64,000 nucleotides of DNA. It comes from Candidatus Woesearchaeota archaeon. GTDB lineage: Archaea > Nanobdellota > Nanobdellia > Pacearchaeales > GW2011-AR1. Positions 5,479-50,403 of this stretch are shown one piece after another (the first letter of the stretch is position 1; each line of letters begins with the position of its first letter). The position numbers were made by a program, and so were the translations under genes. The stretch spans positions 14,492 to 78,491 of the forward strand of contig CAYQJI010000001.1 in assembly GCA_964417865.1 (NCBI GenBank), given 5' to 3'. The notes under the pieces are model-generated. The model searched no databases. It was not told where the DNA came from and saw nothing but the letters and a program-made list of their open reading frames with translations.

Positions 5479-7821
5479 ATGGTAGAAAAAAAAGAATTGA
5501 AAAAAGAGGATTCTTCAACAAATAACAAGGAAAATAATATAGAAAACCCTTTATCTGCATTATATTCTTATGAAGTGAGGAAAGAAGGGGGAGAGGATAT
5601 TCTTTATATTAATTATCTTGGTTCTCCTTATATTCCAAGCATAGCAGATTATTCAGAAGTAATGAATAAGGTTATAGATATTTTATTAGAGGCTCCTAAT
5701 GTTTCTAGAATAATCTTAAGTCAGCAAAAAAACTATAACTATGATTTTCAAGAGACAAAAGCTTTGATAGAATTATCTCAATTTTATAATTATTTAGTCA
5801 AACAAGAGAAAATCCTTTCTATAAACAAAATTTCTCCTTTAAACACCAATTTGTTTACAGAGAGGTATAATCAGTTATTCAAATTTTTAGTTTTATTAAA
5901 AAAAGATCCTGTTTCTTCTTTTTTTGAATTAAAAAAAATAATTATAGAGAATAAAATAAAATTAGAAAAAACAGATTTATTTTCAAAACAAGATATTGAA
6001 AATTATCTTTTCCTTTTAAATAAAATTTTATCCCTTATGGAAAATTTATACATAATCCAAAAGTTATCCCCTTATTTTGATTCTTATAAAAATGGGGAAA
6101 GAGAAATTTACAATTTAATTTTTAAACCTGATATTATCCCAAATTTTACCTTAACAAGATTAATTTCCGATATTCCAAAAGATGCTGAAATAATTGATCA
6201 ATATACAATAGGGGAAGATGAAGATACTTCTGTTGTGACAATTTTAAAGAATAAACACGAAACAACACTCTTTTATCATTTAATACCCCCTGAAAATTCA
6301 TTAGAAGAAGAACAAATTTTACTTTTAGAACTTGCTAGAGAAGTTTTAATGGAACATCAGCCAAAAGCAGAAGAATTTACAGATGTTTCGAGAATAAGGC
6401 AAGTTTTTTTCAATATTTCAAAAGATTTATTGCAAGATTTATCCCAAGCTAAAAATATAACATTAGATTATTCTATCTTAAACAAATTAGCTTCTATTCT
6501 TGTTAGACAAACAATTGGTTTTGGTTTAATTGAGGTTTTATTACAAGACAAAAAAATACAAGATATAATGCTAAATTCACCAATCCCAAAAACTAACATT
6601 TTTATAAAACATGAAGATTATAACGAGTGTTTAACTAATATTTTGCCAAGTCAATCAGATGTTGATTCTTGGGCTGCTAAGTTTAGGATGATCTCTGGAA
6701 GACCTTTAGATGAGTCAAACCCTATATTAGATACTCAATTAGAAATAGGGAAAATAAGAGCGAGAATTGCTATAATACAAAATCCCTTATCTCCTGATGG
6801 AATAGCTTATGCAATAAGGAAACATAGAGAAGAACCTTGGACATTGCCTTTATTCATACAAAACAAGATGATTAATTCTTTTACTGCTGGATTATTAAGT
6901 TTCTTAATTGATGGTGGAAGAACTGTTTTAATTGCAGGTACAAGAGGATCTGGCAAATCTTCTCTTTTAGGAAGTTTAATGTTAGAGATACTCCCAAAAA
7001 ATAGAATTATTGTTGTTGAAGACTCTTTGGAATTGCCTGTAGAATCTTTAAGAGAATTAGGCTTTAATATTTTAAGAATGAAAGTGAGATCTGCTTTATT
7101 AACAAACACGACAGAAGTTTCTGCTGACGATGGAATAAGAACAAGTTTAAGATTAGGAGATTCTTGTTTAATTGTTGGAGAAGTTAGAAGTGTTGAAGCT
7201 AAAGCTTTGTATGAAGCAATGAGAGTGGGAGCATTAGCAAATGTTGTTGCAGGTACAATTCATGGTGCTTCTCCTTATGCTGTTTTTGATAGGGTTGTGA
7301 ATGATTTAGAAGTTCCTACAACTAGTTTTAAGGCAACTGATATAATTGTTATTTGTAATCCAATAAAAAGTGCAGACGGTTTACATTCTAAAAAGAGAGT
7401 TGTACAGGTTTCAGAAGTTAGAAAACATTGGGTAAATGATCCTGTTTCTGAAAAAGGTTTTGTTAATCTTCTTAATTATAATATTGAAAAAGATGAATTA
7501 GAGATAACTCCTGATTTAATCAACGGAGATAGTGAAATTATAAAGGAGATCGCTTCAAATGTTCATGATTGGGTTGGTGATTGGGATGCTGTTTATGACA
7601 ATATTCTTTTAAGAGCAAAGATAAAGCAAGAATTAGTAGACTCTGCAGAAAGAATAAAAAATAACAAACTTTTAGAAGCTAAATTTAATGTGCTTGCAAA
7701 TCAAGCATTTCATGAAATTTCTGATAAAGTAAGAGAAGAAGAAGGAAAACTCTCTTCAGAAAAAGTTTTTTCATTATGGAAAAAATGGCTTGATAATCAA
7801 ATTTCTTTGAATAATTTCTAA
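5479..7821 (+). CDS. type II/IV secretion-system ATPase (archaeal FlaI/TadA/PilB family) with long N-terminal extension
   Basis: Walker A GTRGSGKSSL, Walker B IIVVED, Asp/His boxes. Followed by a FlaJ-like membrane gene and a pilin cluster. Confidence 0.8.
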   Translation: MVEKKELKKEDSSTNNKENNIENPLSALYSYEVRKEGGEDILYINYLGSPYIPSIADYSEVMNKVIDILLEAPNVSRIILSQQKNYNYDFQETKALIELSQFYNYLVKQEKILSINKISPLNTNLFTERYNQLFKFLVLLKKDPVSSFFELKKIIIENKIKLEKTDLFSKQDIENYLFLLNKILSLMENLYIIQKLSPYFDSYKNGEREIYNLIFKPDIIPNFTLTRLISDIPKDAEIIDQYTIGEDEDTSVVTILKNKHETTLFYHLIPPENSLEEEQILLLELAREVLMEHQPKAEEFTDVSRIRQVFFNISKDLLQDLSQAKNITLDYSILNKLASILVRQTIGFGLIEVLLQDKKIQDIMLNSPIPKTNIFIKHEDYNECLTNILPSQSDVDSWAAKFRMISGRPLDESNPILDTQLEIGKIRARIAIIQNPLSPDGIAYAIRKHREEPWTLPLFIQNKMINSFTAGLLSFLIDGGRTVLIAGTRGSGKSSLLGSLMLEILPKNRIIVVEDSLELPVESLRELGFNILRMKVRSALLTNTTEVSADDGIRTSLRLGDSCLIVGEVRSVEAKALYEAMRVGALANVVAGTIHGASPYAVFDRVVNDLEVPTTSFKATDIIVICNPIKSADGLHSKKRVVQVSEVRKHWVNDPVSEKGFVNLLNYNIEKDELEITPDLINGDSEIIKEIASNVHDWVGDWDAVYDNILLRAKIKQELVDSAERIKNNKLLEAKFNVLANQAFHEISDKVREEEGKLSSEKVFSLWKKWLDNQISLNNF

Positions 7822-7876: not shown

Positions 7877-10051
7877 ATGGAAGACAAAAAAATAGATATT
7901 CATGAGATAATTGAGAAACATTCTCAAAGATTACAAAAAGATTTAGACTCTTTTAATAGTATAAAAAAATCTTCTTATAGCAAATCTTATGAATCTTTTA
8001 AAAAAGAAATAAGTCCAGAACCTTCTAATTATGAAAAATGGTGTATTGCTTTAGGTCAAATCATAAAACTAAAAATCTCAAAAAAAGAGGAAGAAGAAAT
8101 TCAAAAAAAATTAGATATAGCTAATTTAGATATAGAACCTTGGCATACTGTTACATTAGCATTTACTTCTTTTCTATTAATCTTTTTTTTAGGATTAATT
8201 TTCTGTTTTGCTCTCTCATATCTAACTGGTAGTGCTTTTCCTGCTGGTCTTTTTATTATGATATGTATTGTTGGAGTTTTTTCTTATCATTTTTTAAGAA
8301 ATTATCCTGATAGAGTTGCTAATAAATGGAGATTAAAAGCTTCTTCACAGATGGTTCCTGCTATTCTATATGTTGTTATCTATATGAGACATACTTCTAA
8401 TTTAGAAAAAGCTATCTCCTTTGCATCAGAACATTTGGAATATCCTTTAAATTTAAATTTTAAAAAAATTTTTTATGATGTTGAAATAGGAAAATTTTCA
8501 ACTATCAAAGAAAGTTTAGATAATTACCTTTCTAGATGGAGAGACTATTCTCCTCAGTTTATTGAATCATTCAATCTCATTGAGAGCAGTTTGTTTGAAC
8601 CTAATGAAGAAAAAAGAATTGACATATTAGAAAAATCTCTACAATTAGTTTTAGATGGCACTTATGATAAAATGTTAAAATTTACTCATGAAGTTAGGAG
8701 TCCATTGACTAATGTTTATATGTTAGGAGTCATTTTACCAACTCTTGCTATTGCTTTATTGCCTATGGCAAATATACTCTTGCAGAACCAGTTGAAAACC
8801 TCTCATGTTTTTGTTTTATTCAATTTAATAGTTCCTTTCCTTGTTTTTTATCTTACTGATAAAATTTTATTTTTGAGACCTGGTGGTCATGGTGAAGTGT
8901 CTTTATTAGAAAAAAATCCCAAATATTATTTATATAAATCCAAAAAACCAATTATTAAAGCTTTTCTTATCTCTTTCCCATTTATTCTTTTAGGGTTAAT
9001 TCCTTTAATTTTTCAATATACTCCTTTGCCTTTATGGCTTAATCTTCAGAGAGATTATACTTTTTCTCAGTTGGGACTTCCTTTTTTTGGAGAAGATACT
9101 TATTTTTTTGGTATAACTGAAGTTGATGGTGTAATTAAAGGGCCTTATGGTATTGGTTCTATGATTTTAAGTATATTTTTTATTTTTGGAGTAGCTTTAT
9201 TTTTTTATATTTCTTTTAAAGGAAAAACTTCTGAATTAAAAAAAGAGAGGGAAAAAACAAAAGAGTTAGAAATTGAATTTAATAATTCTTTATTCCAATT
9301 AGGAAATAAACTTGGAACTGGAACACCCTTGGAGATAGCATTTGGAAAAGTTGCAGAAGACACAAAAGGGTTAAGGACAGAGGATTTTTTCAAAAAAACT
9401 AATTATAATATAACCCAAATGGGAATGAGTGTGGAACAAGCCCTATTTGATAGTAAAAGAGGGGTTTTAATTTATTATCCTTCAAGTTTGGTTTATACAA
9501 GTATGAAAATTCTTGTAGAATCCTCTAAGAAAGGTTCAACAATTGCTGCTTTAAGTTTAGTTAATCTTTCCCAATATGTAAAGAATTTTTATAAGATAAC
9601 TGACAGACTTAAAGATCTGCTTTCAGAAATTATCTCAGATATGAAGAGTAATATGACTTTTTTAGCTCCTATACTCTCTGGAATAATTGTTGGATTATCT
9701 ATGATGATGAGCTCTATTTTAAGTTATATTTCTACTATCAGTAATAATTTTTCAGATGTTTCTTCTTCGCAATTTGGGAATATAGGTTCAATATTAAAAA
9801 TGTTTGAAGGGACAGAAACAATAGCCCCTTATTTCCTGCAAATAATTGTGGGAATTTATCTTATTGAAATAGTTTTTATTTTAACAAAGACTCTGGTTGC
9901 TATAGATTCTGGAGAAGATAAATTAGATCAGATTTATCTAACAGGGATGAATTTAAGGAGAGCAATATTTCTTTATTCTATAATTGCGATAGGCTCTTCT
10001 ATAGCTTTATCATTCTTAAGTTCTTTTGTTCTTTCTGGTTTGATTCAATAA
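7877..10051 (+). CDS. FlaJ/TadC-like pilus assembly platform membrane protein
   Basis: 724 aa polytopic membrane protein immediately downstream of the ATPase. This is the canonical archaeal type-IV pilus gene order. Confidence 0.55.
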   Translation: MEDKKIDIHEIIEKHSQRLQKDLDSFNSIKKSSYSKSYESFKKEISPEPSNYEKWCIALGQIIKLKISKKEEEEIQKKLDIANLDIEPWHTVTLAFTSFLLIFFLGLIFCFALSYLTGSAFPAGLFIMICIVGVFSYHFLRNYPDRVANKWRLKASSQMVPAILYVVIYMRHTSNLEKAISFASEHLEYPLNLNFKKIFYDVEIGKFSTIKESLDNYLSRWRDYSPQFIESFNLIESSLFEPNEEKRIDILEKSLQLVLDGTYDKMLKFTHEVRSPLTNVYMLGVILPTLAIALLPMANILLQNQLKTSHVFVLFNLIVPFLVFYLTDKILFLRPGGHGEVSLLEKNPKYYLYKSKKPIIKAFLISFPFILLGLIPLIFQYTPLPLWLNLQRDYTFSQLGLPFFGEDTYFFGITEVDGVIKGPYGIGSMILSIFFIFGVALFFYISFKGKTSELKKEREKTKELEIEFNNSLFQLGNKLGTGTPLEIAFGKVAEDTKGLRTEDFFKKTNYNITQMGMSVEQALFDSKRGVLIYYPSSLVYTSMKILVESSKKGSTIAALSLVNLSQYVKNFYKITDRLKDLLSEIISDMKSNMTFLAPILSGIIVGLSMMMSSILSYISTISNNFSDVSSSQFGNIGSILKMFEGTETIAPYFLQIIVGIYLIEIVFILTKTLVAIDSGEDKLDQIYLTGMNLRRAIFLYSIIAIGSSIALSFLSSFVLSGLIQ

Positions 10052-10414: not shown

Positions 10415-10906
10415 ATGAAATTAAATAAAAACAAGAAAGCAGATTTTTTAATTAAAAATGTTTTAGAAATAGTTCTTGCAGTTATTGGAGTCATGCTTCT
10501 TATTTTTTTAGGTGTTAAATTAATTCCTTTAATTTTTCCTTCATCTGTTGAGAAAGCAGAATCAAGTTTAAACTTGTTATTTGGTCTAATTAATCAGAAC
10601 CTAAATCAAGAGAGTGTCAATGAAGTTAAGGTATTCATTCCAAACCCCAAAGGTTGGTATTTTTTTGGAACTTTAAAAGGTGATTCTTCTTCTCCTATTA
10701 AAGAATGTAGAGAAAATCCTTGCATCTGTATATGTTCCGAAGGATTTATATGTACTGAAAAAGCTAAAGGTGTTTGTTACCCTTTTGATTTTGATGATTA
10801 TACATTATCCTACAATTTGGGTGCATTAGAAATTTCTTCTAATGGTCTTTTCCTTAAAGTTTCTTTTGATAGAACAAATAAAATAATAAATATAGCTAAA
10901 AAATGA
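10415..10906 (+). CDS. pilin-like protein (class III signal peptide), Cys-rich
   Basis: N-terminus KNKKA/DFLIKNVLEIVLAVIGVMLLIF, 10 cysteines (CICICSEGFIC). Confidence 0.5.
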   Translation: MKLNKNKKADFLIKNVLEIVLAVIGVMLLIFLGVKLIPLIFPSSVEKAESSLNLLFGLINQNLNQESVNEVKVFIPNPKGWYFFGTLKGDSSSPIKECRENPCICICSEGFICTEKAKGVCYPFDFDDYTLSYNLGALEISSNGLFLKVSFDRTNKIINIAKK

Positions 10907-11043: not shown

Positions 11044-12126
11044 ATGAAAAGAAATAAATCAAAAATGAAAAAAGGAGAACTTACAACAGAGAACATTGTT
11101 ACTTTAATTGTTTTAATAATCGGATTTATAATTCTTTTGGCCTTTTTAGTTGGCTTTAATTATGAAGAGGAGGTTAATCAAATTGTTTGTAAAACTTCTG
11201 TTTTATTAAAAGCAACTTCTAAACAAATTTCAGGGTTAGAAAAATTATCTACTTCTTTAAATTGTCATACTAAATACCTTTGTATAAGTTCTGATAATAA
11301 ATGTGATAAGGACCTATCAATAAGTAATGTAAAAAAAGTTTCTTCTAGTGATGAAATATTTAAAATTCTGGCTGATGAACTTGGAAATTGTTGGTCTATG
11401 TTTGGGGAAGGCAAATTGGATTATTTTTCCAAATTTAATATAAAAACAGATCTTTATTGTTCTTTATGTTCTTTAATATATTTTGATAAAGATTTAAATG
11501 AAATTAAAGATGAAAATTCTTATTTTGTGAAAGATGAAAATGGGAAAGTTATTGGATTAAATCAAACAAAATTTTACATTTATTTAGCCAAAACAAAAGT
11601 TGGAAAAAGTAATGAAAATTATTTAACTTACCTTTATGGAATTTCTTCATTCTCTCAATTCAATAATTATCTAACAAATGGATTTATTCCAACAGAAAAT
11701 TCAAATATAGAATCACAAAAAAATTTAGAAGTTGAAAAATTGAATAATATTCCTTCTTTAGCTCCTCTAAACTTTTCAAAAAATTATTTTGTTCTATTAG
11801 GCGCTATGGACAATAGTGATCTCCTTAATATTCTTTCTACTTATGGAGGACCTGCCACTGGGTCTTTATTGGGTTTAGCTGCGGGTTTTATTATCTCACC
11901 ACCGTCTGCCATTATGTGGGGAGCACTTTTTGTAGGAGGAGCATTAATAGGACAAGGCGTGCAATCAACAAGTAATTTTTTAATTAATGATTTACTCTTT
12001 TCAAAAAAAAATCAAGAGACAAATAAAGAAGAGAGTAGTTTAGTTTTCTTTGGGCCTAATTTAGTGGAAGCTAATGCGAAATCATTAAGCAACATTAAAT
12101 GTTCTGAAATTAATACTATCGCTTAA
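11044..12126 (+). CDS. pilin-like protein (class III signal peptide), Cys-rich, with C-terminal hydrophobic anchor
   Basis: KMKKG/ELTTENIVTLIVLIIGFIILLAF, NCW motif, C-terminal TM (LLGLAAGFIISPPSAIMWGALFVGGALIG). Confidence 0.5.
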   Translation: MKRNKSKMKKGELTTENIVTLIVLIIGFIILLAFLVGFNYEEEVNQIVCKTSVLLKATSKQISGLEKLSTSLNCHTKYLCISSDNKCDKDLSISNVKKVSSSDEIFKILADELGNCWSMFGEGKLDYFSKFNIKTDLYCSLCSLIYFDKDLNEIKDENSYFVKDENGKVIGLNQTKFYIYLAKTKVGKSNENYLTYLYGISSFSQFNNYLTNGFIPTENSNIESQKNLEVEKLNNIPSLAPLNFSKNYFVLLGAMDNSDLLNILSTYGGPATGSLLGLAAGFIISPPSAIMWGALFVGGALIGQGVQSTSNFLINDLLFSKKNQETNKEESSLVFFGPNLVEANAKSLSNIKCSEINTIA

Positions 12127-12180: not shown

Positions 12181-12642
12181 ATGATAAAAAATAAAAAAGG
12201 TGAAGGGAATGATTTATTTTTGAATAACTTTGTTGATATAATTTTAGATTTTATTTTTTTTGGAGTTCTTATACTCTTTTTATTAAATCAAAATTATAAA
12301 ATTTCTTTTTTAGAATTAAATTATGCTAAGAATATAGCTTTGTTAATAGATAATGCTAAACCTGGAATGACTATTACTTTTGATTTGTCTGATGCAGTAA
12401 AAATTGCTAAATCCAATGGTGTAGATATTAATGATATGATAAAAATTCAAGATAATAAAGTTTTAGTTACTCTTGCAAGGGGTAAATGGAGTTCTTATTC
12501 TTTTTTTAATAATATCAATATAGTTAGTTACTATCCTCTTTATAATACAAATAAAAAGGGTTATACAGGAGAATTTGTCTTTAAGATAGGAGAGTATATT
12601 GAAAATGAAGAGTTAAATCTTGAAAATGAAAAACTAAATTAA
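12181..12642 (+). CDS. pilin-like protein (class III signal peptide-like)
   Basis: KNKKG then hydrophobic helix FVDIILDFIFFGVLILFLL. Confidence 0.4.
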   Translation: MIKNKKGEGNDLFLNNFVDIILDFIFFGVLILFLLNQNYKISFLELNYAKNIALLIDNAKPGMTITFDLSDAVKIAKSNGVDINDMIKIQDNKVLVTLARGKWSSYSFFNNINIVSYYPLYNTNKKGYTGEFVFKIGEYIENEELNLENEKLN

Positions 12643-12654
12643 ATTAAAATAAAG

Positions 12655-13338
12655 ATGAAAATTTTTTTGATTAATAAAAAAAACAAAAGAGGAAATGTTT
12701 TTTCTATGTGGTGGTTTGTAATGGCAGTAATTGTCGCCGCAGTAATTTATATAATGGTTAATATGTTTTTTCAATCTCCCATAGATATTAGAGATATGGA
12801 GGTTAATAGTCTGATAAATCAGGTTGCAGATTGCATTTATTATGCTGGGCAATTTAACAATAATATTAATTTTATTTCTGAAAGTTCTTTAAGGCAAAAG
12901 GATATAAGTTCAGAAAATAAACTTATTAAAAATGAGCCAGAAATAGATAAAGAGTTCTTAATAAAAAATTGTCATTTAAATTTATTTGATGAAAATTATC
13001 CTAAAGAAAATCAGTATTTTATTCAAGTTAATATTTACAAATTGGACACAGCGTCAAATTCATTAAGTTATAAAGATAATCTTTTAGTAAATTATATTGC
13101 AGGAAATGAAATTTTTAAAGATTTTTGTGATTTACAATTACAAAAAAATTTTTATCCTTCATCTAATGTTTTAGAAGAAATTAAATACGAAGATAATATT
13201 TATAAGACTCTTCCATTCTGTAAAAATAAAAAATTTTATGCATTTACAAGGCAAATTATGGGGGATAATTCAAGAAATGAATATATTATAGAAATTATTG
13301 GAGGTATAAAAAAATTAAATGAGAATATTAAAGTATAA
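12655..13338 (+). CDS. pilin-like protein (class III signal peptide)
   Basis: KNKRG/NVFSMWWFVMAVIVAAVIYIMV. Confidence 0.5.
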   Translation: MKIFLINKKNKRGNVFSMWWFVMAVIVAAVIYIMVNMFFQSPIDIRDMEVNSLINQVADCIYYAGQFNNNINFISESSLRQKDISSENKLIKNEPEIDKEFLIKNCHLNLFDENYPKENQYFIQVNIYKLDTASNSLSYKDNLLVNYIAGNEIFKDFCDLQLQKNFYPSSNVLEEIKYEDNIYKTLPFCKNKKFYAFTRQIMGDNSRNEYIIEIIGGIKKLNENIKV

Positions 13339-13612
13339 AAAAGCTCAGATAGGGTATACTCTTAATTGGGGTGCAGCTTTAATATTAATTTTTATTATAT
13401 TATTAATATTTGTAATTGTTTCACTTTTATTTATTAATCATTCAAATTTAGTAAAATTTTTCGAACCAAAGAATACTCTAATAGAGGTTCAAAATCAACA
13501 TTTAATCTCAAAAAGTGAAATTTCTCTATCAGAAGTTACTTCAATGAATACAAAGGATTTTGATTCATATCATTCAAAAATTATAAATTTAATAAAATTA
13601 GAAAATGATTAA
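13319..13612 (+). CDS. small pilin-like protein
   Basis: KKAQIG then ALILIFIILLIFVIVSLLF. Shares the KKAQ(I/L)G leader with the next gene. Confidence 0.45.
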   Translation: MRILKYKKAQIGYTLNWGAALILIFIILLIFVIVSLLFINHSNLVKFFEPKNTLIEVQNQHLISKSEISLSEVTSMNTKDFDSYHSKIINLIKLEND

Positions 13613-14507
13613 AAATAAAAAAGCTCAATTAGGCATAAATATTTTTGTTTTAGGAACACTTATAGTTTGTGTTCTTGCTTTATTCAGTTTTAGCACTAAT
13701 TCTAATAAAGTTAAATTTAATTTTTATGGAATTTCTGCTTTAGAAGAAGAAAATACAAAAATTGAAAATGAACAATATCAACAATACTTAAAACTAAAAG
13801 AGAACATCCAAGAGTTTAAATGTTCTTATCAAGATTTATGCCAATGCCCTAAAGTAGATTCTCCTTATAATAAGTTAATTATCAACAATATGGATATTAA
13901 CGATTTAATAAGTAATGTTGACTGTTCAAATAAAGAACTTCTTAAAAATAATTTATTTAATTTAATGAAATCTATTTCAGATACTAATGCCGAGTATGTT
14001 GCAAGTCAATGTAAATGTAAAGATAATTGTAAAAATTATGCTGGACTTCTTGTTGATGAAGCTTGCAAAGATGATAATAACAAGATAGATCCTTATTTAT
14101 TATTGTCTATAATGATGCAAGAATCTGATTGTGTGGCCTTAGCTATAAATTCAAATAAAGAGAGTAATGGGAAAGTTTCTTCTTCTGACTGTGGTTTAAT
14201 GCAGATAAATACAAAAAGTCAAGAGGATTGTAAGGACCTTATTCAAAATCCAGCCTCTTCTATAAAAAGAGCAGTATCTCTTCTAAAAGATAAATTTGAT
14301 AAAGAATGCATTTTTACAGGGGGTAAATATAAAGATGGAGGCTTTACATGTGATGCTTCTACATTGATAATGCATTCTGATTGTACAAGAAGTGTTAAAT
14401 ATTCTGGTTGGGCTTCTAAAATAAGAGGTTATAATGGTTGGGGTGCAGGAGGTTCACCTTACTATACAGAACTTGTTTTAGAGAGATATTTAGAATTAAA
14501 AGGATAA
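13605..14507 (+). CDS. pilin-like protein fused to family-1 lytic transglycosylase (SLT/goose-lysozyme-like) domain
   Basis: KKAQLG + hydrophobic helix. SLT motifs: catalytic ES motif (SIMMQESDC...DCGLMQIN), NPASSIKRAVSLL, GYNGWGAG. Confidence 0.65.
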   Translation: MIKNKKAQLGINIFVLGTLIVCVLALFSFSTNSNKVKFNFYGISALEEENTKIENEQYQQYLKLKENIQEFKCSYQDLCQCPKVDSPYNKLIINNMDINDLISNVDCSNKELLKNNLFNLMKSISDTNAEYVASQCKCKDNCKNYAGLLVDEACKDDNNKIDPYLLLSIMMQESDCVALAINSNKESNGKVSSSDCGLMQINTKSQEDCKDLIQNPASSIKRAVSLLKDKFDKECIFTGGKYKDGGFTCDASTLIMHSDCTRSVKYSGWASKIRGYNGWGAGGSPYYTELVLERYLELKG

Positions 14508-14678
14508 AAAAATAAAATGACAGTTGAAGAAATTAAATCTTTTGCAAATAATATAAAAGTTGATTATAATTCTGAGTCAAATATATTATTAACAAATAAT
14601 AATCAAAAATAATTCTAAAAACCTTAAATAACTTCAAATTAACAAAAGCTTTTTAAATACTAAAAGATTATAAAAGAT

Positions 14679-15221
14679 ATGAAGTTAGAAAAAAAAATAA
14701 ACAAAAGAGGAGACCAAACACCTTGGATCTTAATCTCTTTGATTTTAGCACTTGCTGTTGGTGTATTTTTTATATATAACTTTTTTAGCTATAATCAATT
14801 ATTTTCTGCTTCAAATATTAATGATATAACTGATCTTTGTGTTAACACATATACAAAACCAGAAGAATTTGTTTCTAAAGGTTTACCTGCTTTTACAATA
14901 GAACAAGCAGGCAAAAAAATTGTTTATTCTAAAGGATTTACTTGTTATTATTTATCTAAACTAAGCACAAATAATCCAGCCTATAGTGCAGTTAGTGGAA
15001 GGAATAATTTAGATGAGATATGGCTCGCATGGGATGATAAAATTAAAATCATGGAGCCTAATAAAGATGAAACTTTCAGAAAAGAGGAGTGTGAGAAAGA
15101 TCCCAAGTTAATTTATGTTTATTCTGCAAAAGAAGAAAAAAATAAGTATACCTTAGAGGTTACAATATGTAACCCTGGGATAGCTCCTGCTCCTGCTGGA
15201 GGACATAATTCAGAAGAATAA
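14679..15221 (+). CDS. pilin-like Cys-rich protein (class III signal peptide)
   Basis: NKRG/DQTPWILISLILALAVGVFFIY, near-identical leader to 45258. Conserved GFTCYYLSKLSTNNP motif. Confidence 0.5.
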   Translation: MKLEKKINKRGDQTPWILISLILALAVGVFFIYNFFSYNQLFSASNINDITDLCVNTYTKPEEFVSKGLPAFTIEQAGKKIVYSKGFTCYYLSKLSTNNPAYSAVSGRNNLDEIWLAWDDKIKIMEPNKDETFRKEECEKDPKLIYVYSAKEEKNKYTLEVTICNPGIAPAPAGGHNSEE

Positions 15222-15358: not shown

Positions 15359-16741
15359 TTGATGAAATCTTTAATGATAAAAGATAAAAGAGGTATGGAT
15401 ACAATGGCCTTTATTCTTGTTGCATTAATTCTTGCAGCAATAGTTCTTATTGCTTTGTCAGGAGGATTACAAATTGTTATAGGAAAATTAAAATCCGCTT
15501 TAGGAGGGCCTTCAAATGTGGATTTAATCAAAGGATTTTGTCAATTATCATGTAATCTCGGATTTACTAATGATTATTGTTATAAACCTAGAACATTAAC
15601 AGATAATTTAGGAAATAAACTTAATGATGTAACTTGCTATTTCCTTTCTAGATATAAGCCGAGTTATGAGATTGATTCTTGTCCTAAGATAACTTGCTCT
15701 GTTGAATTTAATAATAACATAAATTCCAAAGAGCAATTTAATCAATTACAATGCACAAAAAACAAATTATATTTACAATCTTTTATTCAAAATTCTGAAA
15801 AAGAATATACTTTGTTGTCAAAAGAATGTTCAAATTTCCTTGAAAAACCTCTAATAATTTCTAAAGATGAATTGAACCTTGATCCAACTCTTGAAAAATC
15901 TCTTAACAATTATATTTACTATTCTACAAATGCAGAATGGGTTGATAACTTTAATAAAGATTTACTTATCAATGCAATTAATGTTGCAACAGGAAAAAAA
16001 TCAAGCCAATTTTACCAAGATTTAGACCAGACTAATCCAGAAGCTGTAAAATTTTGTTATGAACCTATTAATTCATTAAATGGATTAACTGGATATGCTT
16101 ATTTAAAATCAAATTCAAAACTAATGAATAATGTTATTGATGCTTATCAAATTAATCAAAATGATTTTGAGCGTTGTGGCGTTTATTACTATTTTGTTGA
16201 TAAAACAAATGTAAGGTATGGAGGTCTATTATCTTATTACAAAACTTATAAATCTGCTGAAAATAGAGGGAGAGATTCCGATTCGTTTAAAGAGAATATA
16301 ATAAAACCTTTTGGTTGTATCAATAATGATTATAATAACTATCTCTCTCTTAGATATAATCAAAATGACCCAACAGGAAAGTATATCCAATTTTTAGATG
16401 AAAACAATAATCTTATTACTTTAGATTTTCCGTGTGAACCAGATATCTCAAGTTTTAAAGTAGACGAGGTCTGTAAAGCCTTTTATGATGAATTAGTTCA
16501 GAAATTTTCATTAGATCCTTATTTAGAGAATATTGAAACCTTTGATTTTTGTTCTAAAAAAATTAACCTTCTGGATTCCTCTGGAAATGAGATTTGTTCA
16601 GGATGTACCTGTTTTTATGTGCTTAATAATCTTAAAGAAGAAGATTTAACAAAAAGAGGTTATTTAAATGTCGCTAACAACGGAGTAACCATCTCAAATT
16701 TAGAGATTATAAAGTCTTGTAACCATGAATCTAAAACATAA
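15359..16741 (+). CDS. pilin-like Cys-rich protein (class III signal peptide), 460 aa
   Basis: KDKRG/MDTMAFILVALILAAIVLIAL, VTCYFLSRYKP motif shared with paralogs, more than 20 Cys. Confidence 0.5.
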   Translation: MMKSLMIKDKRGMDTMAFILVALILAAIVLIALSGGLQIVIGKLKSALGGPSNVDLIKGFCQLSCNLGFTNDYCYKPRTLTDNLGNKLNDVTCYFLSRYKPSYEIDSCPKITCSVEFNNNINSKEQFNQLQCTKNKLYLQSFIQNSEKEYTLLSKECSNFLEKPLIISKDELNLDPTLEKSLNNYIYYSTNAEWVDNFNKDLLINAINVATGKKSSQFYQDLDQTNPEAVKFCYEPINSLNGLTGYAYLKSNSKLMNNVIDAYQINQNDFERCGVYYYFVDKTNVRYGGLLSYYKTYKSAENRGRDSDSFKENIIKPFGCINNDYNNYLSLRYNQNDPTGKYIQFLDENNNLITLDFPCEPDISSFKVDEVCKAFYDELVQKFSLDPYLENIETFDFCSKKINLLDSSGNEICSGCTCFYVLNNLKEEDLTKRGYLNVANNGVTISNLEIIKSCNHESKT

Positions 16742-16903: not shown

Positions 16904-17758
16904 ATGTATGAAATAATATTTTTATTAATCTTAAGTTTTTGTTATCTTATATTTGCAGTTATTCAAGATTTTAAATCAAGAGAGATTGCAGATTGGCTTA
17001 ATTATTCTTTGATAATCTTTGCTTTAGGTTTTAGGTTTTTTTATTCTTTGTTCAATGAAAATAATTTTAATTTTTTTATCCAAGGATTTATTGGATTTCT
17101 TATTTTTTTAGGATTAGCTAACCTGTTTTATTATTCAAGACTTTTTGCAGGAGGAGATGCAAAACTTATGATGGCTTTAGGAGCAATTTTGCCATTAGAT
17201 TATTCTTTTAGTTCAAATCTCCTTTTATTCCTTAATTTTTTATTTTATTTTTTTATAGCTTCTTTAATTTATGTTTTAATTTCAAGCGTTTTTCTTACAT
17301 TAAAAAATTTTAAATCCTTTAAGATTAAATTTATTAAAGAAGTTAAATTTCAAAAAAGATTGATTATATTATCTTGGTTATTCTTTTTCTTATCAACAAT
17401 TTTAAACTTCGTCTTTTTATCTAAATTCAATTTCGTTTTTTTAGGATTTTTTATTTTAGTTTTAACTTATTCTTATATTTATTCAAAATCTTTAGATGAG
17501 TGTTGTATGATTAAAGAAGTTTTAACTAAAAATTTAACAGAAGGAGACTGGCTTTATAAGGATGTGAGATTAAAAAAAGAAACTATCAAATCTAAATGGG
17601 AGGGTTTAACAAAAGAAGAAATAAGAAAAATAAGATTAGAACTAAAAAAAGTAAAGATAAGACAAGGAATTCCTTTTTCCCCTACTTTTTTATTAGGCTT
17701 TTTGCTTTTTGTGATATCTTATTTTTTTAAAATTAATTTATGGAATCCTCTTTGGTAA
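16904..17758 (+). CDS. prepilin/preflagellin peptidase (A24 family, PibD/FlaK-like)
   Basis: Polytopic membrane protein with the catalytic A24 motif LFAGGDAKLMMALGA and an N-terminal Asp (IQDFKS). Confidence 0.7.
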   Translation: MYEIIFLLILSFCYLIFAVIQDFKSREIADWLNYSLIIFALGFRFFYSLFNENNFNFFIQGFIGFLIFLGLANLFYYSRLFAGGDAKLMMALGAILPLDYSFSSNLLLFLNFLFYFFIASLIYVLISSVFLTLKNFKSFKIKFIKEVKFQKRLIILSWLFFFLSTILNFVFLSKFNFVFLGFFILVLTYSYIYSKSLDECCMIKEVLTKNLTEGDWLYKDVRLKKETIKSKWEGLTKEEIRKIRLELKKVKIRQGIPFSPTFLLGFLLFVISYFFKINLWNPLW

Positions 17759-36950: not shown

Positions 36951-38840
36951 TTGATGATGTTTAAAGAGGGAAAAATTCATTTTTATTCAAGTAAAAAATT
37001 TTTTAAAAAAGGCCAATTAACAATCTTTATTATAGTTGCTTTATTAATTGTTTCTGGGGTTATTGTTTTCTTTTTATTTAGAAATAACATTATAAAAGAG
37101 AGTGTTCCTATAACAATTCAACCTGTTTATAACACTTTTGATTCTTGTATCCAGGATATTGGGAAAAAGGGGATATATCTATTAGAATCTCAAGGGGGTT
37201 ATATTTATCTTCCAGAATATCAAAAAGGTTCTTATAATTTCCCTTCTTCATCTTATCTAAACTTTATGGGCAATAATATCCCTTTTTGGGATTATTTTTC
37301 TTCTACTTCATTAGAAAAAAAGCAAATTCCTTCTAAAACCGATATGGAGGATCAATTAAAAAGGTTTATAGAATCCAATGTAAAAAATTGTGATTTTTCT
37401 ACAAATTATGCTCAAGGATTTGAGATTACACTTAAAGATTTTAGTGTTTCTCCTAAAATTTTAGATAATAAAATAACAATTGATTCTTCATTTAATATGA
37501 ATATTAGCTTAAATAACGAATCTTTTTCTATTAATCATTATAAAACAGATTTAACTTCTAATTTAGGAGTGTTATATGAAGATGCTCTAAAAGTTTATAG
37601 TCAAGAAGAGGAAACTCTTTTATTAGAGAATTATACGATTGATGTTTTAAGGCTTTATGCTCCTGTTGATGGTTTTGAGATATCATGCTCTCCAAAGGTT
37701 TGGAATATCAATAAAATCTATTATGATTTAAAAAACTCTCTTGAGCCAAATATACAATCAATAACCTCAGAAAAAAATAAAAATCCTAAACCTGAAAATA
37801 ATAAATACTTCTATAGAGATTTTAAAACACAAGGAAGTGTTAAATTTTTAACTTTTATGGATTGGCCAATGTTTTTAGAAGTTAACCCTTCTCAAGGAGA
37901 TTTACTCATTGCTAATCCTGTTGGAAATACCCCTGAACTAAGTATTTTAGGTTTTTGTTTTATTCCTTACCACTTTGTTTATTCTTTAAATTACCCTGTA
38001 CTTGTTCAAATTTCAAAGAATGATGAAACATTTCAATTCCCTCTTGTTGTCTATATAGATAAAAACAAACCAAAATCTGCTTTAACAAAAAAAACAGATT
38101 CTTCCTCTATTGATATTTGTTCTAACAAAGTTACCCCTATAACCCTAAATGTTCATGATACTTCAAATAATTTAATTCCTTTTAGTGTTAATTTTGAATG
38201 TATAAATGAGGATTGTTATATTGGAAATTCTTCTACAGGTAATTCTACATTTTTATTCCCAGAATGTGTGAATGGTGTTGTAAAAATAAATTCAAATAAT
38301 TTTCTTGAATCAAAAGTAGTATTAGACAATACTCTCCAAGAATCAGAACTAAATATCTATTTAACAAAAACTTATCCTATCGGTGTTCAAATTAATTTAG
38401 ATAACATGCCTTCTAATGAAGAAGCTTTAATCTCTTTTAATTTTAATGATTATTCAAAAACCCTTTTTTACCCTAAAGAAAAAATAATAAACCTTTCTGA
38501 AGGTGTTTATAATATTTCAGTAAAAGTTTATAAAAATTCTTCTTTAACTATCCCAGAAACAGAGACAGAGATATGTGTGCCTATAAAATCAGGAATAAAA
38601 GGTTTATTAGGAATATCTGAAAATAGTTGTTCAAAGATTAAAATTCCTAGTCAAATTATGTCCAATGTTCCTGTTGGGGGAGGGATAATCCGAGATTATG
38701 AGATTTCAGAATCACAATTAAAAAATTCAAGAATTATACAATTAAATGTTCAATCTTTAAAAACTCCAACTGACTTTTTAAGTATACAAAAAAATGTTTT
38801 GTTAACAGATGAAAATGAAATAGAGGTAAATTTAATATGA
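36951..38840 (+). CDS. pilin-like large extracellular protein (class III signal peptide KKGQ/LTIFIIVALLIV), 629 aa
   Basis: N-terminal positively charged stretch then hydrophobic helix. Overlaps the next gene by 4 bp (ATGA). Confidence 0.45.
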   Translation: MMMFKEGKIHFYSSKKFFKKGQLTIFIIVALLIVSGVIVFFLFRNNIIKESVPITIQPVYNTFDSCIQDIGKKGIYLLESQGGYIYLPEYQKGSYNFPSSSYLNFMGNNIPFWDYFSSTSLEKKQIPSKTDMEDQLKRFIESNVKNCDFSTNYAQGFEITLKDFSVSPKILDNKITIDSSFNMNISLNNESFSINHYKTDLTSNLGVLYEDALKVYSQEEETLLLENYTIDVLRLYAPVDGFEISCSPKVWNINKIYYDLKNSLEPNIQSITSEKNKNPKPENNKYFYRDFKTQGSVKFLTFMDWPMFLEVNPSQGDLLIANPVGNTPELSILGFCFIPYHFVYSLNYPVLVQISKNDETFQFPLVVYIDKNKPKSALTKKTDSSSIDICSNKVTPITLNVHDTSNNLIPFSVNFECINEDCYIGNSSTGNSTFLFPECVNGVVKINSNNFLESKVVLDNTLQESELNIYLTKTYPIGVQINLDNMPSNEEALISFNFNDYSKTLFYPKEKIINLSEGVYNISVKVYKNSSLTIPETETEICVPIKSGIKGLLGISENSCSKIKIPSQIMSNVPVGGGIIRDYEISESQLKNSRIIQLNVQSLKTPTDFLSIQKNVLLTDENEIEVNLI

Positions 38841-41800
38841 TAAAAAAAATAAACTATCTATTTTTGGTATTTTTCATTATTTTATTTTCTAATTTAGTCT
38901 TTTCAGCAACAATTTCAGATTTTTTTAAAACTCAAACAAAAGATAATTTGAACACAGAAAACTCTCCAATTTATCAATGTAATCAAGGAGAAGATTTTAT
39001 CGCATTTATTTCTCCTTTACAATGCTCCCCAGAAATTGTTAGAGATGATTTGCTTGAAGAAAATGATGTGCCGATTTATTGTAAAATTAATCTTTATAAA
39101 ATTAATCCTTTCGTTGATGTTTCTGGAATAAAAAGTGTATCTTTCTTAGGGAATCATTCTAAAGAAATAAGCAGTGTTTCTTATTACCCTGCATATTCTG
39201 CTTTAACAGGAGTTCAATCTAATTTAAAAAATCCAGGTTATATAAAAATTCTATTAAAAAAAGAACCAAATACCTCTAAGATTCCTGATTTTGTAGAGGG
39301 AAATCTTAGCGCAAAAATCTCTTATACCCTAAAAGATGAGGTGGGAATTCATGATTATTCTATTAATTTAAAAGAAATCTCCAACGATTATGAATGGGAT
39401 AATGTAAAGAATAAATATAGTTTTTGGAATAATAAGGGATATATAAGATTAGCAAATTTAGAAAACAATAAAGCAACTCTCTGGGTTTATGATTCAAAAG
39501 ATAGAAAAATATCCTCTTTGACTTTATCTAAAGGAGAAAATTCTAAAATAATATACTCTAATGATTTTGGATGCACTGGTTTACAAGTTAAACTACAAGA
39601 TTTAGAAAACCCTGAAACTAAAGCTCAAATTTCTATTAACTCTAATATTGTAGATTTAAAACAAAACGATAAGTTTCTTGATAACAAGTGTTCTATAATC
39701 TCTATTGATAAATACTCTGAAGTTGTTAAAATAAGATGCAACGAAGATAATGGTATAAAAGATTATTCTTTATTTAATTCTTATAAAGTTAATCTTTCTA
39801 TTGATGGAACAGAATACATCAAAGATATTGGAGATTTCCTTTTTTCAGCTGATAATAAGGATATTTATCTTGTTGGGATTAGTTCTGTATTATTAGATAA
39901 TAGCCCTCAAAATATTGTTTGGATTGGGGAGATACCTAAAGAAATTTCCAATTCTGCACAAAGTCTAAACAGTTATCAAATAACTGGTTTTTCTTCATTA
40001 ATCAGCCAAATAATCTCAGCTAATAATATTAAAAATGAAAATTCTTTCTCTTTAGAGAGTCTAACAAAAAGTTTTGGTGCTTTTTTATATGAAAGCTTTT
40101 TTTACAAGATAGGTTCTGGTCAACAAATTCATTTTTTAAAACAAAGAAAAGATTACACTATTTCAGGAAAAAAAATTGTATTTAATGGATTTGATACCCC
40201 CAAAGATGAAGAGCTTTTAGGAGAAATTAAAAATAATTATGAATTAGCAAAAGAAAATTACGAATCTGTAATAAAGGACTTTTCTTCTGAATCTCTTATT
40301 ACTAATAAAAATGAAAATGTTTATACAGGAGAAAGAGCCTTGTATCAAGAAATTATCTTATCTTATAATGTAAATCAAAAATTTACTGCATCCCAATTAT
40401 GCGAGAAGTTTTTCTCTAATTACCCTAATTCATTGTATATTCCTGAATTAAAAGAAAAATATTGTAATGAACTAAAATTATCTTCTTCTACAAATAGCGC
40501 ATTTGTTTCAATAAATCAAAACTTGTATAAAATCTCTTTAAATTATATTTCTGAACCTTCTTTTGAAGAGTATGGTGCAAGTTTCTTTGTAAATGATGGT
40601 TCTAATAGAGCTTCTTTTTCATTAAACAGAAATGGAATTTATGATTTAAACTCTTATAAAATTCCTTTATCAATAAGATTAAGTTCAATAGATAGTGACC
40701 CAAAGGGAAATTATGTTAATATTCAGATTAGTTCTTCAGATGAAAACCTTAAAAAACAGATTAGTCAAACAACTTACAAAATTTATAAGAATGATCAATT
40801 AAAAATAGGAAATTATTTTATTGTTGTTTCTAATATTAATTTAAAAAAAGAGGCTTTTGTTTCATTGGTTCCTTCAATTAGTTCTTCTTCGTCACAAGCA
40901 AATTTCAGTTTTAAGATAGGAATTGAAAAAAGGGCAATTAAATTAACTCCTGAACAAACTAAATCTCTTATAAAAAATGTAAATGAAAAAATTTCTCTAT
41001 TATCAGATATTTCTAATGGCTTAGAATCAGTTATTGAACCTTTAAAAGGAGCATGTTATCTTTCTACTGCAACTCTTTTAATAAAAAATTTCATTTCAGG
41101 TTCAACAAGCCAAGGTATGGCTAGACTTCTTGTTATGAAGGGTGTTGAAGGAAATTCTGGATGGTATACTAAATGTGAAAAAGAGATGAAAGAAAATCCT
41201 TCTAAATTTAGTTCATTAAATAGTTGTCTTTCTAATCATTCTTCAGAGATAGAAGAAGATGTTCAAAAGACCTCTAGTGTTATAGATAAGCTTAATAAAG
41301 AAATAAAAGACGAACAATCTCAAGATTCTTATCAATTATCAACAAAATCATCTCTGGGAATTCTAACAACTACAATAGACAAAGGAAAATTGAAAGATAA
41401 TTTCTTATTAAACAAAGATAAACTAAACAGAATTATTAATAATACAAGAGAAATAACTGATAATACAAAAGAAAATCTTAACAAATTATTAGAAAATCAA
41501 GAAGGTTTAAAAAAATCAATGAGCTTTGAACAAGCAAGAGATTTGAATTTATATTTAATGATTTTGAGTGAAACAGGTATTTCTGATAATTTAAAAGAAA
41601 TAGCAAATACAAAATTAGAATCTTTGATTAATGAAGTTTCTTTAACATCTGTATCTAATGAGCAAATTTTAAGTTTATCCTCTTATCTTGGAATTGATTA
41701 TAAAAAAATTGGAATTTTAAGTTCTGATTCTAAAGGAAATATCCCCTACTTAGGATTAGTATTAAAAGATTTAAGCAAATTGGATAGTAAGTTTTCATTA

Positions 41801-44800
41801 AATGAATTTTCTAATTCTCCTGTTTATTTATTTGAATATCTCAACAAAGAAAATAATAAAGATACCCTTTTCTACCTACTATTATTGGAAAAAAAGGGTA
41901 ATCTTTATACCCCTAAGAATAATAAAATTTTTAAAATAGATAAGACAAATAATGGGTTCAATGTTGTTGATACAGAGAGCTCACCTTTCCCTTTTAATAA
42001 CATTCAATTTATAAGTTCAAGTTTCTCCAATAAATATCAAAATCCTGAATTAAAATATTATGATTCTAGTAATTCTGATAAATTACCTTCAGTTGTTCCT
42101 ATTGATACAGCAAATGGATGGTATGCTGGAATAGAACCTCTTGTTTATGGAAATAAAGATGCGATTTTAGATTCTGGAAGAATTAATATTTTTTATTTAT
42201 GTAATGTTGGAATAGATGGAAAAGAAGAATTTTCTCTTAGGAACTCTCAATCAACTGATGATCTCTGTCAAATGATTGATTTGGGAATTTCTGAAAGTTA
42301 TAAATACATTATGGGTTTGTCAGAAACAGAATCAGTAAGATTAACTACAAAAGCAATTAGTGCAATACAACAAGCACAAAAAGCATCTAACCAAGCAGAG
42401 GGTTCTAGCGTTAAAATACTAGATCAAGTATTTAAAGTAGGAAAATCCCAAGTAGATACCAATTCATTTAGATGTGAAGACTTTATGCCTCATCAAGATT
42501 GTTTAACAATATTTAATCTTTGTGACCCTGTAATATGTCCTTCAAGTAGATGTGATTTTGGAGGAAAATATAAAGTGGATAATGTTGTGCAATCTGGAAT
42601 TTTAGGTAGTATAATGCTTTGTTTACCTAACGCTAAAGAAGGAATTCTCTTCCCTATTTGTTTAACCGGAATTAAAGCAGGAGTTGATTCATTAAATTCT
42701 GTATTAAAATCTTATAGTGATTGTTTAAATATAAGCTTACAAAATGGACAAACAGTAGGTGTTTGTGATGAAATTAATAGTTTTTATATATGTGACTTTG
42801 TTTGGAGACAAGTTTCTCCTATCTTGAACTTAGGAATTCCTACAATAGTTGAATCTTTATTAAACAAAGGGAGAGGTGGTGGAGAATATATTAATGTTCA
42901 AGCTTCATGGGAACTTACTAAATCTGCTGCAGATTATTTTGTTAATTCTTATGGGCAAAATTCTAAAAAAGCTTTTCTTTTGAGAAGTTCTGAAAATATT
43001 GGAGGAGAAGTTTGTAAACTTTATACTTCTTTTACTACTCAAGATCTTTCTGGTGTTGTAAAAAGTTTATTAAAATCAGATTCTCCTGCACAATTCACAG
43101 GAAGATTTGATGAAATACCTTTAACAACAGTCACAGAACATCCAACATCCCATTATAAAGTATATTATCATATTTATGCAGGAACAGATAGTGGTGCAAA
43201 TTATAAAGTTTATCTTAGAAACAAAGAAACTTATTATCAAGATACTTCAACAGCATTAGTTGTTGATAGTGGTTATGTGCCTAATGGAAATTACTATTCT
43301 CAAACTAAAGATATAATTGGGAATTCAGGATATAATGAGCTGTGTATATCAGTTAATAATCAAGAAGTATGTGGTTTTAAAGAAGCTTCTACTTCTATGA
43401 CAATTAATCTTTTGTCTGATGAATATGTTAAATCTATTTCTACAAAAAATGATATAAAAACAGAGGCACAATGTGCAGGAGGAATAAATCAAGGAATAGT
43501 AAGAATCTGTTCTTCTAAAAGTCCTGGAGAAGGTATTGATGCTTATTATAATACTGAAAATGCTAGATGGAAACAAGTAGGGGTTTGTGGTAATGAAAAT
43601 ATGAAATGTTGGCTTGATACAAATAGTGTTAAAGATGCTATTGTGTCTAAGAGTGTTGAAGAATCAACTGTTCAATCTTTAGAAGATTCTTATAAATCCC
43701 TTATTAATACTGAAGGAGAATTAACTGAAGATCAATTGAATGAATTTTTTGAAGAATTAAGTCAAGAAAAAGATATTAATTCAAAAATAAATAGAATTTC
43801 AAACATCTTAGACAAGGTTTATAATAGCAAATATAAAGCAAATTTAATAATATTAAGAGGAGATCTTTATAATGAGCTTTTAATTTCATTAATAAGATCT
43901 AATCAAAATATTGGTAACATTAATTTAAAAACAAAAGATAGTTCAATTTCTCAAACCGATTTAAATTCTCAAAATTCAAATTCTCCTTCTTTAACTCCAA
44001 CAGAGGTGGATTCTTCTGAAGATTATAGATCTCCTGTTTTTTCCTTAAATGCTTTAATTGTTAGTGGCGAAGAGAAAGTTAATAACTCTTTATCTTTTTT
44101 TAAGGATAAATCTAGTTCATCTTTTTCTAATGCAAAAGAAGCTGTTTTAGAAATTTATGAAGATGAAAAAGTTTCACCTTACTGTTATTATACTGAACCA
44201 GATAAGAAAAATTATAAAAATATTAATAATGAATTTCAAAAATCTTTTTCTGTATATACATCAGATGCTAAAACAGCGCTTTTTTATGTTGATAAAGAAA
44301 ATTGTCTTTTAAACCCAGACGATATTAATGTTCTTTCAGATCAAAATAAGAAATTAAACTTATTACAAAAAGGAGATATAATTTCTTATGTTAAAGATGG
44401 TTCTTCTTCAAATAGTGTCATTTTTATAGAATGGATTAATCAAAAGAACTATATTGCAAAAGTATTGGATTGGAATGGTGGGAATATATTAACAGGAAGA
44501 AAATATCAAGAAATTGAAGTTAATCTTTCTGATAATTCTCATCCTGTTTATATGATAATAAAACCTATTCCAAAAGATGACTTTTCAAATCTACCTCCTG
44601 TTGATTCTTTAAGAGATTATTTTAAAAACGAAATTTATGCAATAAAACTTTCAAGTGAAGGTGAAGGACCTATTACCTCTTTTGATATAACATATACAGA
44701 AGCTAGTTCTTTATCTTCCGCTAGAAGTGAGTTAATAAATAAAATATCTTCTTGGATTGGAAAACAAGCTCCTAGTGATGTAACAAACTGTTGGAAAGCT

Positions 44801-50218: not shown

Positions 50219-50323
50219 TTTTTTATCCTATAATCTCTTTGAGATTTTTGAATTTTATCCCCTTGTTTTTTGTTTCATTTTTTATCAATAATTTTATATA
50301 TACTCTTAATTTAATTCCTTTAT

Positions 50324-50395: not shown

Positions 50396-50403
50396 TGAGT
50401 GTT

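Follow-up and report, generated by a model that had tools for sequence, protein, structure and literature searches.

The gene that begins at position 13605 of a 64,000-nucleotide stretch of Candidatus Woesearchaeota DNA (contig CAYQJI010000001.1; "the window" hereafter means the whole of this 64-kb stretch) encodes an archaeal protein with a complete GH23 (SLT) lytic transglycosylase domain, its predicted active site intact, behind a pilin-like N-terminus. The gene lies within a type-IV-pilus-like operon, and in different lineages of related archaea alignment of the predicted proteins places the same domain, in situ, on no fewer than four of that operon's pilin genes. Our preferred explanation is that the protein is a lytic transglycosylase presented by a pilus and aimed at the murein of another cell. 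We infer its processing, its incorporation into a filament, its activity and its target, and we are evenly divided between believing this explanation and doubting it.

The transglycosylase domain and its pilin-like carrier

A preliminary description of this DNA, made from the letters alone, had proposed that the product of gene 13605 (the SLT protein) couples a class-III signal to an SLT or goose-lysozyme-like domain with a catalytic glutamate. The domain is real. Pfam SLT (PF01464) scores 34.8 bits (E 1.3e-8) on residues 157–232, where the gathering cut-off is 21.3, and every motif quoted in that description is present in the 300-residue open reading frame (ORF): KKAQLG at residues 5–10, MQESDC at 171–176, GLMQIN at 197–202, NPASSIKRAVSLL at 215–227 and GYNGWGAG at 275–282. 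The NCBIfam model for the type III secretion system (T3SS) transglycosylase IagB matches weakly, at 20.7 bits against an equivalog cut-off of 208, and a PDB search with the single SLT-protein sequence returned nothing at E≤1. A profile of 44 family members reached MltC (1.2e-10), MltE (1e-7) and Slt70 (9e-6) in the PDB, together with EtgA and g-type lysozymes; aligned to MltC, the Q-E-S of the family coincides with the catalytic Glu motif. A fold search supports the same identity. In the structure model a helix at residues 6–31 (predicted local distance difference test score, pLDDT, 92–95) is followed by a second helix at 40–67 and, after a linker modeled with low confidence, by the SLT domain, which has the alpha-rich, lysozyme-like fold that the preliminary description had anticipated, with Glu173 and Ser174 at the end of the helix spanning 163–174.

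The mean column identity of the 44 aligned small members is only 17%, and Gln172, Glu173, Ser174, Gly197, Tyr266, Arg274, Tyr276 and Gly278 are invariant in all 44, with M199 and Q200 at least 90% conserved. An alignment of 10 sequences has G197-L-M-Q200 and R274-G-Y-N-G-W-G280 invariant, and so contains motifs II (G-L-M-Q) and III (Y-N-x-G). This pattern bears on the idea that the SLT fold is a wall-binding adhesin that holds glycan strands and catalyzes nothing. Modular pilins are mostly adhesins (PMC8179133), and Castelle et al. proposed wall attachment for the giant relatives described below; but a catalytic Glu and Ser kept in 44 of 44 members at so low an overall identity would be needless for pure binding, and we give the adhesin idea next to no credence.

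We also think it distinctly improbable that the head has been retargeted to a glycan other than murein, such as a chitin-like GlcNAc polymer or the envelope of an archaeal host (a methanogen, for example), in a symbiosis of archaeon upon archaeon. All family-1 lytic transglycosylase motifs are retained, and the closest sequence relatives are the murein transglycosylases MltC, MltE, EtgA and the IncI PilT-type enzyme. Pseudomurein, which the preliminary description had entertained as an alternative substrate, is built with beta-1,3-linked N-acetyltalosaminuronic acid and resists lysozyme and lysozyme-type enzymes, which makes that alternative chemically unlikely.

The protein is rich in cysteine, with 15 residues that include the conserved C136, C138, C142 and C176. 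A Cys-containing insertion, FTGGKYKDGGFTCDASTLIMHSDCT (window 14310–14390, residues ∼236–262, pLDDT <50), is restricted to the window's sub-clade (P0001 and P0002), and the residue differences between the window protein and P0001 fall in this loop and near the C-terminus.

At the other end of the protein, MIKNKKA/QLGINIFVLGTLIVCVLALFSF (a slash marks the predicted cut, here and below) is a short charged leader followed by a hydrophobic stretch, the form of a class-III signal. The characterized sites of the Methanococcus maripaludis Epd pilins, RAQI, KGQV, KGQL and KGQI, all have Gln at +1 (PMC4371748); the K-A/Q-L site of the SLT protein and the K-A/Q-I site of the gene before it are of the same type, in agreement with the KKAQLG signal picked out in the preliminary description. 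Such leaders are scarce in the window. A simple rule (a leader ending in [KR][GA], then a hydrophobic helix), applied to all 69 ORFs of 90 residues or more in the window, found a prepilin-type leader in just 10, and eight of these are contiguous between the ATPase and platform genes on one side and an A24 peptidase gene on the other.

A pilus-like operon and a domain that changes pilins

The machinery encoded around the gene is archaeal-type and type-IV-pilus-like, as far as sequence comparison can tell (Table 1). The SLT gene is the sixth of eight consecutive prepilin-leader genes in a one-strand cluster. The best solved relatives of the ATPase are the Archaeoglobus fulgidus GspE-type protein 2OAP (E 5e-28), CpaF and FlaI, and its top NCBIfam matches are FlaI, TadA and the bindosome protein BasE, all under their equivalog cut-offs. 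The protein in the platform position is kept beside the ATPase in related loci, with E-values down to 1e-302, and across them the A24 peptidase gene keeps its place as the last of the operon. More than 20 DPANN loci keep the order ATPase, platform, 10415, 11044, 12181, 12655, 13319, 13605, (14679), 15359, A24.

Table 1. Window positions of the SLT gene and its parts, the pilus-like operon and a second, related cluster
Feature	Position	Strand	Details and basis
Pilus assembly ATPase, PilB/FlaI/TadA class	5479..7821	+	780 aa; Pfam T2SSE 54 bits
Polytopic membrane protein in PilC/TadC/FlaJ (platform) position	7877..10051	+	724 aa; inferred from position and topology; ∼9–10 hydrophobic segments
Pilin-like gene 1, candidate major pilin	10415..10906	+	163 aa; leader KNKKA/D; leader, single N-terminal helix, conserved operon position
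Pilin-like gene 2	11044..12126	+	360 aa; leader KMKKG/E
Pilin-like gene 3	12181..12642	+	153 aa; leader KNKKG/E
Pilin-like gene 4	12655..13338	+	227 aa; leader KNKRG/N
Pilin-like gene 5	13319..13612	+	97 aa; leader YKKA/QI, +1 Gln; 8-nt overlap with SLT gene
Modular pilin-like protein with predicted SLT head (GH23, family-1 lytic transglycosylase)	13605..14507	+	300 aa; ATG start
Class-III leader MIKNKKA and hydrophobic alpha1-N helix (aa 8–31)	13605..13697	+	predicted cut Ala7/Gln8; sequence, hydrophobicity, model
SLT catalytic domain (aa 131–300)	13995..14504	+	includes Cys-rich lead-in C136-x-C138-x3-C142-x2-Y145
Codon of predicted catalytic Glu173	14121..14123	+	E-S motif closing helix 163–174; family alignment and model
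In-frame TAA, then remnant of ancestral C-terminal tail	14505..14612	+	KNKMTVEEIKSFANNIKVDYNSESNILLTNNNQK, then stop; alignment to L007
Pilin-like gene 7	14679..15221	+	180 aa; leader INKRG/D; paralogue of ORF 45258–46280 (34% identity, E 2e-19)
Pilin-like gene 8	15359..16741	+	460 aa; 18 Cys; leader KDKRG/M
A24 prepilin peptidase (FlaK/PibD-like)	16904..17758	+	284 aa; Pfam Peptidase_A24 49.9 bits; NCBIfam FlaK_Arch weak, 42 bits
Large prepilin-like protein, second cluster	36951..38840	+	629 aa; leader KKG/QLTIFII; 4-nt overlap with giant ORF
Giant surface protein, homologue of SLT-bearing DPANN giants	38837..45217	+	2126 aa; Sec-type signal; 32% identity to P0020 over >1800 aa
Prepilin-like protein downstream of giant	45258..46280	+	340 aa; leader NRRG/E

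A word-indexed search found just nine relatives of the SLT protein, each with a leader and an SLT core; an exhaustive profile search returned 2086 proteins at E<1e-3, of which the cluster representatives below E<1e-30 number 147. These fall into two architectures, small proteins of about 200–510 residues with a prepilin-type leader, and giants of 1700–3000 residues with a Sec-type signal and the SLT domain near the C-terminus. Pilus genes lie near the small SLT ORFs in 20 of 28 loci, the remaining eight being truncated or on short contigs (19 of 22 when only complete ORFs are counted), and near none of 23 giants (Fisher p = 4e-8, 20/28 against 0/23).

Sorted by the pilin gene to which they are homologous, the N-terminal modules of SLT proteins are of the 13605 type in 17 clusters, the 12655 type in nine, the 12181 type in eight and the 10415 type in six, with single cases of the 11044 type (weak) and the 15359 type, and the alignments span 60–130 residues, well past the hydrophobic helix. 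The fusions also stand at the matching positions of the operon: on the 12655-type gene in loci L019 and L026, on the 12181-type gene in L030 and L044, and on the 10415-type gene in L051. L018, L026, L030 and L072 have a 13605-type orthologue that lacks the SLT domain and remains a pilin-like protein of 114–168 residues, and in four further loci (L020, L037, L050 and L053) the small SLT gene directly follows the platform gene. Because the heads sit on different pilins and the 13605 orthologue persists without one, we regard the N-terminal part as a pilin-like module able to stand alone, to which the SLT head is an accessory. Repeated grafting onto different pilins implies that what selection favors is a place on a pilin in itself, and because the same head is on at least four of them we argue that the enzyme has to act while carried by a pilin. 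In a nearest-neighbor analysis of the SLT domains, the 13605 and 12655 types each cluster with their own kind and the giants and other types are interleaved, a picture too crude for counting fusion events. The link to pili suggested in the preliminary description is thus stronger than it was, resting now on a conserved type-IV-pilus-like operon and on SLT domains borne by several of its pilins.

These distributions also bear on a more modest role for the leader. It might serve only for secretion and anchoring, much as in the bindosome, with the SLT head staying at the surface of the archaeon and digesting free or dead-cell peptidoglycan to scavenge amino sugars and peptides, and with no delivery to a living host at a pilus tip. 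Non-pilin proteins, namely the Sulfolobus sugar-binding proteins of the bindosome, do use class-III signals and a pilus-like assembly (PMC4371748), and our ATPase resembles BasE. The SLT protein lacks a canonical pilin head, and scavenging of peptidoglycan by Pacearchaeota has been proposed (PMC11537232). Against this, the domain has been grafted again and again onto members of one conserved set of eight pilin-like genes and not onto just any secreted protein, and an ordinary Sec pathway is available, the one that the giant SLT proteins take. On balance we consider bindosome-like display rather unlikely, and return to the pilus-presented enzyme as our preferred reading.

Two other origins for the gene were considered and rejected. 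The GC content at third codon positions (GC3) of the SLT gene is 0.153, within the 0.11–0.18 of its neighbors, so it is neither a chimera of assembly nor a recent bacterial import; it is also syntenic in more than 20 independent metagenome-assembled genomes (MAGs). As for a phage or viral origin, tblastn found no match in 50,697 phage records and there was no relative in IMG/VR.

The giants have a pilin connection of their own. A homologue of the 36951 gene, about 620 residues long and with a [KR]GQ-type leader, directly precedes the giant in every related locus whose 5′ flank is intact (26 of 26), so that both SLT architectures are genetically tied to prepilin-like proteins. In the SLT region the family profile recognizes giants such as P0020, P0024 and P0030 with E-values of 1e-59 to 1e-68. 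The window's own giant, which is flanked by the two leader-bearing ORFs that lie outside the pilus-like operon (36951–38840 and 45258–46280), was suspected of carrying an SLT domain, which Pfam, BLAST and the family hidden Markov model (HMM) ruled out. Its C-terminus (window 44234–45214, residues ∼1800–2126) has two Cys...His repeats, TNCW...PGDIISYVYNEKIGHNAIFIEW, reminiscent of NlpC/P60 or CHAP. That resemblance (NCW...PGDIISY...GHNAIFIEW) found no support from a Pfam match or a word-search homologue, and a single-sequence AlphaFold model of the repeats was unusable (pLDDT 37).

Further features of the neighborhood are recorded here for completeness. The secreted proteins of the operon have an unusually high content of cysteine (15 residues in the SLT protein, 18 in ORF 15359, eight in ORF 11044 and six in ORF 10415), with CxCxxxC and CxCxC motifs that are invariant. 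Encoded at 19445–20527, 2.7 kb downstream of the A24 peptidase gene, is a DsbD_TM/SfLAP-type membrane protein that may be a thiol-disulfide transporter. Between the pilus operon side and a block of RPA and RadA genes lies an IS240-family DDE transposase (20532–21404, minus strand), which is not at that position in relatives L001 and L004.

The producing cell and its possible target

The producer is a tiny archaeon and probably a symbiotic one. The window is about 26% GC and encodes RadA, RPA, TFIIB, TFIIE, GINS, ribosomal protein S3Ae, eIF2-alpha, deoxyhypusine synthase and a tRNA-intron endonuclease. In a scan with one genome per species the nearest was the Candidatus Woesearchaeota MAG AS27yjCOA_155, at 85–86% identity, so the archaeal assignment of the preliminary description holds. 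Of the 66 related loci, nearly all belong to MAGs assigned to Woesearchaeota, Pacearchaeota, Nanoarchaeota or Aenigmatarchaeota; one (L071) carries a Methanosarcinales label. Two more are labeled as bacteria. L018 (JAHYJW010000004.1, "Patescibacteria group bacterium") has RadA, RPA, Cdc45, synteny with the window and about 30% GC, and L062 (DAITPU010000001.1, "bacterium") has TFIIB, the same synteny and about 30% GC; by their gene content both are DPANN archaeal contigs, mislabeled or misbinned. To our knowledge, archaea do not make murein. Family scans of the window proteins found no mur-type genes in these 64 kb, a small part of the genome.

The window has some further oddities of genome content. 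An Rfam tRNA match on the minus strand at 53027–53116 (90 nt, 54.5 bits) has no ARAGORN call and may be an intron-containing archaeal tRNA; the tRNA-intron endonuclease gene is at 54375–54893. A tRNA-Cys gene (50324–50395) lies inside the 5′ end of a class-II aminoacyl-tRNA synthetase ORF with a TTG start (50239–52059), and because it overlaps the called 5′ end, the true start of the synthetase must lie further downstream. ORF 49337–50218 encodes the C-terminal domain of an Fe-only hydrogenase large subunit (Pfam Fe_hyd_lg_C, E 1e-36), although the metabolism of this genome is otherwise minimal.

How might a pilus-presented transglycosylase work? The SLT-pilin would be inserted in the membrane, where the A24 peptidase would remove MIKNKKA by cutting before Gln8. 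The ATPase and platform would then polymerize the eight pilin-like proteins into a filament, in which the bulky SLT-pilin would be scarce and would most probably sit at the tip. On contact with a bacterium, the SLT head would cleave the beta-1,4 bonds between N-acetylmuramic acid and N-acetylglucosamine (MurNAc-beta-1,4-GlcNAc) via Glu173, opening the sacculus locally and so allowing close attachment, access to the bacterium or the release of muropeptides. The term "host-penetration effector", used in the preliminary description, is an interpretation of this kind.

Several observations count against the scheme. The model of the SLT protein has no beta-rich globular pilin head on alpha1-C, and because this beta-sandwich is missing we call the protein modular and pilin-like and not a classical pilin; model confidence is low, moreover, at residues 68–100 and 240–257. 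The candidate platform protein (7877–10051) has no Pfam, NCBIfam or PDB sequence match and no detectable PilC/TadC homology. The SLT gene itself ends early: GGA TAA in the window corresponds to GGG TTA in L007, and the stop removes a conserved tail of 35–42 residues, about 35 codons of which are still homologous in frame. P0001, at 97% identity, retains the full 342 residues, tail included, and the SLT domain of the window protein is complete despite the stop. The stop may have arisen recently as a nonsense mutation, may be a sequencing error or may be read through. Measured against the closest relatives, and from small counts, the ratio of nonsynonymous to synonymous substitution (dN/dS) is 0.13 in the pilin part and about 0.5 in the SLT part, which may reflect relaxed or diversifying selection on the latter. 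Finally, all cultivated DPANN archaea have archaeal hosts (PMC11291902), and this DPANN clade is not known to have a bacterial host.

Beyond the single locus, we can imagine a wider practice, in which DPANN of the Woesearchaeota/Pacearchaeota type would use a type IV pilus to breach bacterial walls on contact, with the lytic head carried by pilins and the giants perhaps presented via a KGQ-type prepilin-like adaptor. This we offer tentatively, as a possibility we are more inclined to doubt than to believe. Were it true, it would be the first molecular device to explain episymbiosis or predation by an archaeon on a bacterium, and it would provide a genetic marker from which to predict whether a DPANN lineage has bacterial or archaeal partners. 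Until now the use of bacteria by two very abundant groups, the Woesearchaeota and Pacearchaeota, has been argued only from large transglycosylase genes; the present locus ties the transglycosylase to a pilus apparatus and would give cross-domain contact a concrete mechanism.

Comparison with known systems

An attack on bacterial walls by transglycosylases of DPANN archaea has already been proposed in print; the pilin-borne form and the hopping of the domain between pilins we did not find in the literature that we searched. Large DPANN proteins with lytic transglycosylase domains, and their proposed binding or degradation of bacterial walls, are described in PMC8204110 (Castelle 2021, fam00969) and PMC9723730 (Vigneron 2022, GH23); the former cites Rinke 2013 and Castelle 2015 and proposes that the giants attach to bacterial cell walls. 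The accessible text of the DPANN transglycosylase literature that we searched makes no mention of a form with a pilin leader or of a pilus operon, and the census of archaeal type IV pili by Makarova et al. is silent on both transglycosylases and DPANN. The SLT protein shares with the giants a variant of the domain that includes the Cys-rich lead-in (profile E 1e-30 to 1e-68), the same phyla and the same proposed target. It differs in being 300 residues long, with a prepilin leader and a place inside a pilus operon, whereas the giants have 1700–3000 residues and a Sec signal and are never beside a pilus operon. What is new for the published giants is their coupling to the KGQ-type prepilin-like gene of about 620 residues.

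Bacteria, too, place small SLT proteins within the operons of envelope machines, such as PilT of R64, BfpH, VirB1 and EtgA/IagB. The IncI1-type pil operons of bacterial type IVb (T4b) pili encode a separate lytic transglycosylase of the PilT type, and the best plasmid match of the DPANN SLT domain is an IncI PilT-type enzyme (37% identity, E 2e-14); the matched IncK/I plasmid operon comprises an ATPase, GspF, a pilin, the transglycosylase, an A24 peptidase and PilV. The transglycosylases of T4b pili, the T3SS and the type IV secretion system (PilT of IncI1/R64, EtgA, IagB, VirB1) act in the periplasm as proteins in their own right and open the sacculus of the cell that makes them, and one could suppose that the archaeal enzyme likewise makes space for its pilus in a murein-like layer of its own. 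The logic of the operon (ATPase, platform, pilin, transglycosylase, A24 peptidase) is identical to that of the IncI/K T4b pilus operons, and the T3SS enzymes EtgA and IagB are among the relatives. Such an autolysin is nevertheless very improbable in our view. Murein is not known in archaea, and mur-type genes are absent from the 64-kb window, a small portion of the genome; the specialized bacterial enzymes carry Sec or lipoprotein signals and not pilin leaders; and the same domain ends extracellular proteins of 2000–3000 residues, which fits action directed outward. The archaeal case is set apart by its producer, by the fusion of the enzyme to a pilin module, and by its FlaI/TadA-like ATPase and FlaK-like peptidase.

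As a predicted enzyme, the SLT protein has its fold and catalytic motif in common with MltC, MltE, MltF, Slt70 and goose-type lysozyme; unlike them, the DPANN clade has extra conserved cysteines, and the window sub-clade its insertion at residues ∼236–262. With the bindosome it shares the attachment of a prepilin-type leader to a functional protein that is not a pilin, in a system that depends on PilB/PilC-like proteins and a prepilin peptidase. The bindosome subunits, however, are solute-binding proteins for uptake and not enzymes acting on the wall of another cell.

The closest parallel in design is with the modular type IV pilins, among them PilB-vWA and PilC-lectin of Streptococcus sanguinis, whose grafted modules are expected to be presented at pilus tips (Raynaud et al. 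2021, PMC8179133). We did not find a lysozyme or transglycosylase module in the main text or supplementary text of that work, as available to us. Here as there, a pilin module is joined to a grafted functional module that would be displayed at the tip, giving the filament an additional function. The modular-pilin catalogue is bacterial (the IPR012902 motif); the DPANN example is archaeal, with a predicted glycan-cleaving module that has moved among several pilins of one operon, and so would extend the modular-pilin principle to archaea and to a wall-degrading enzyme.

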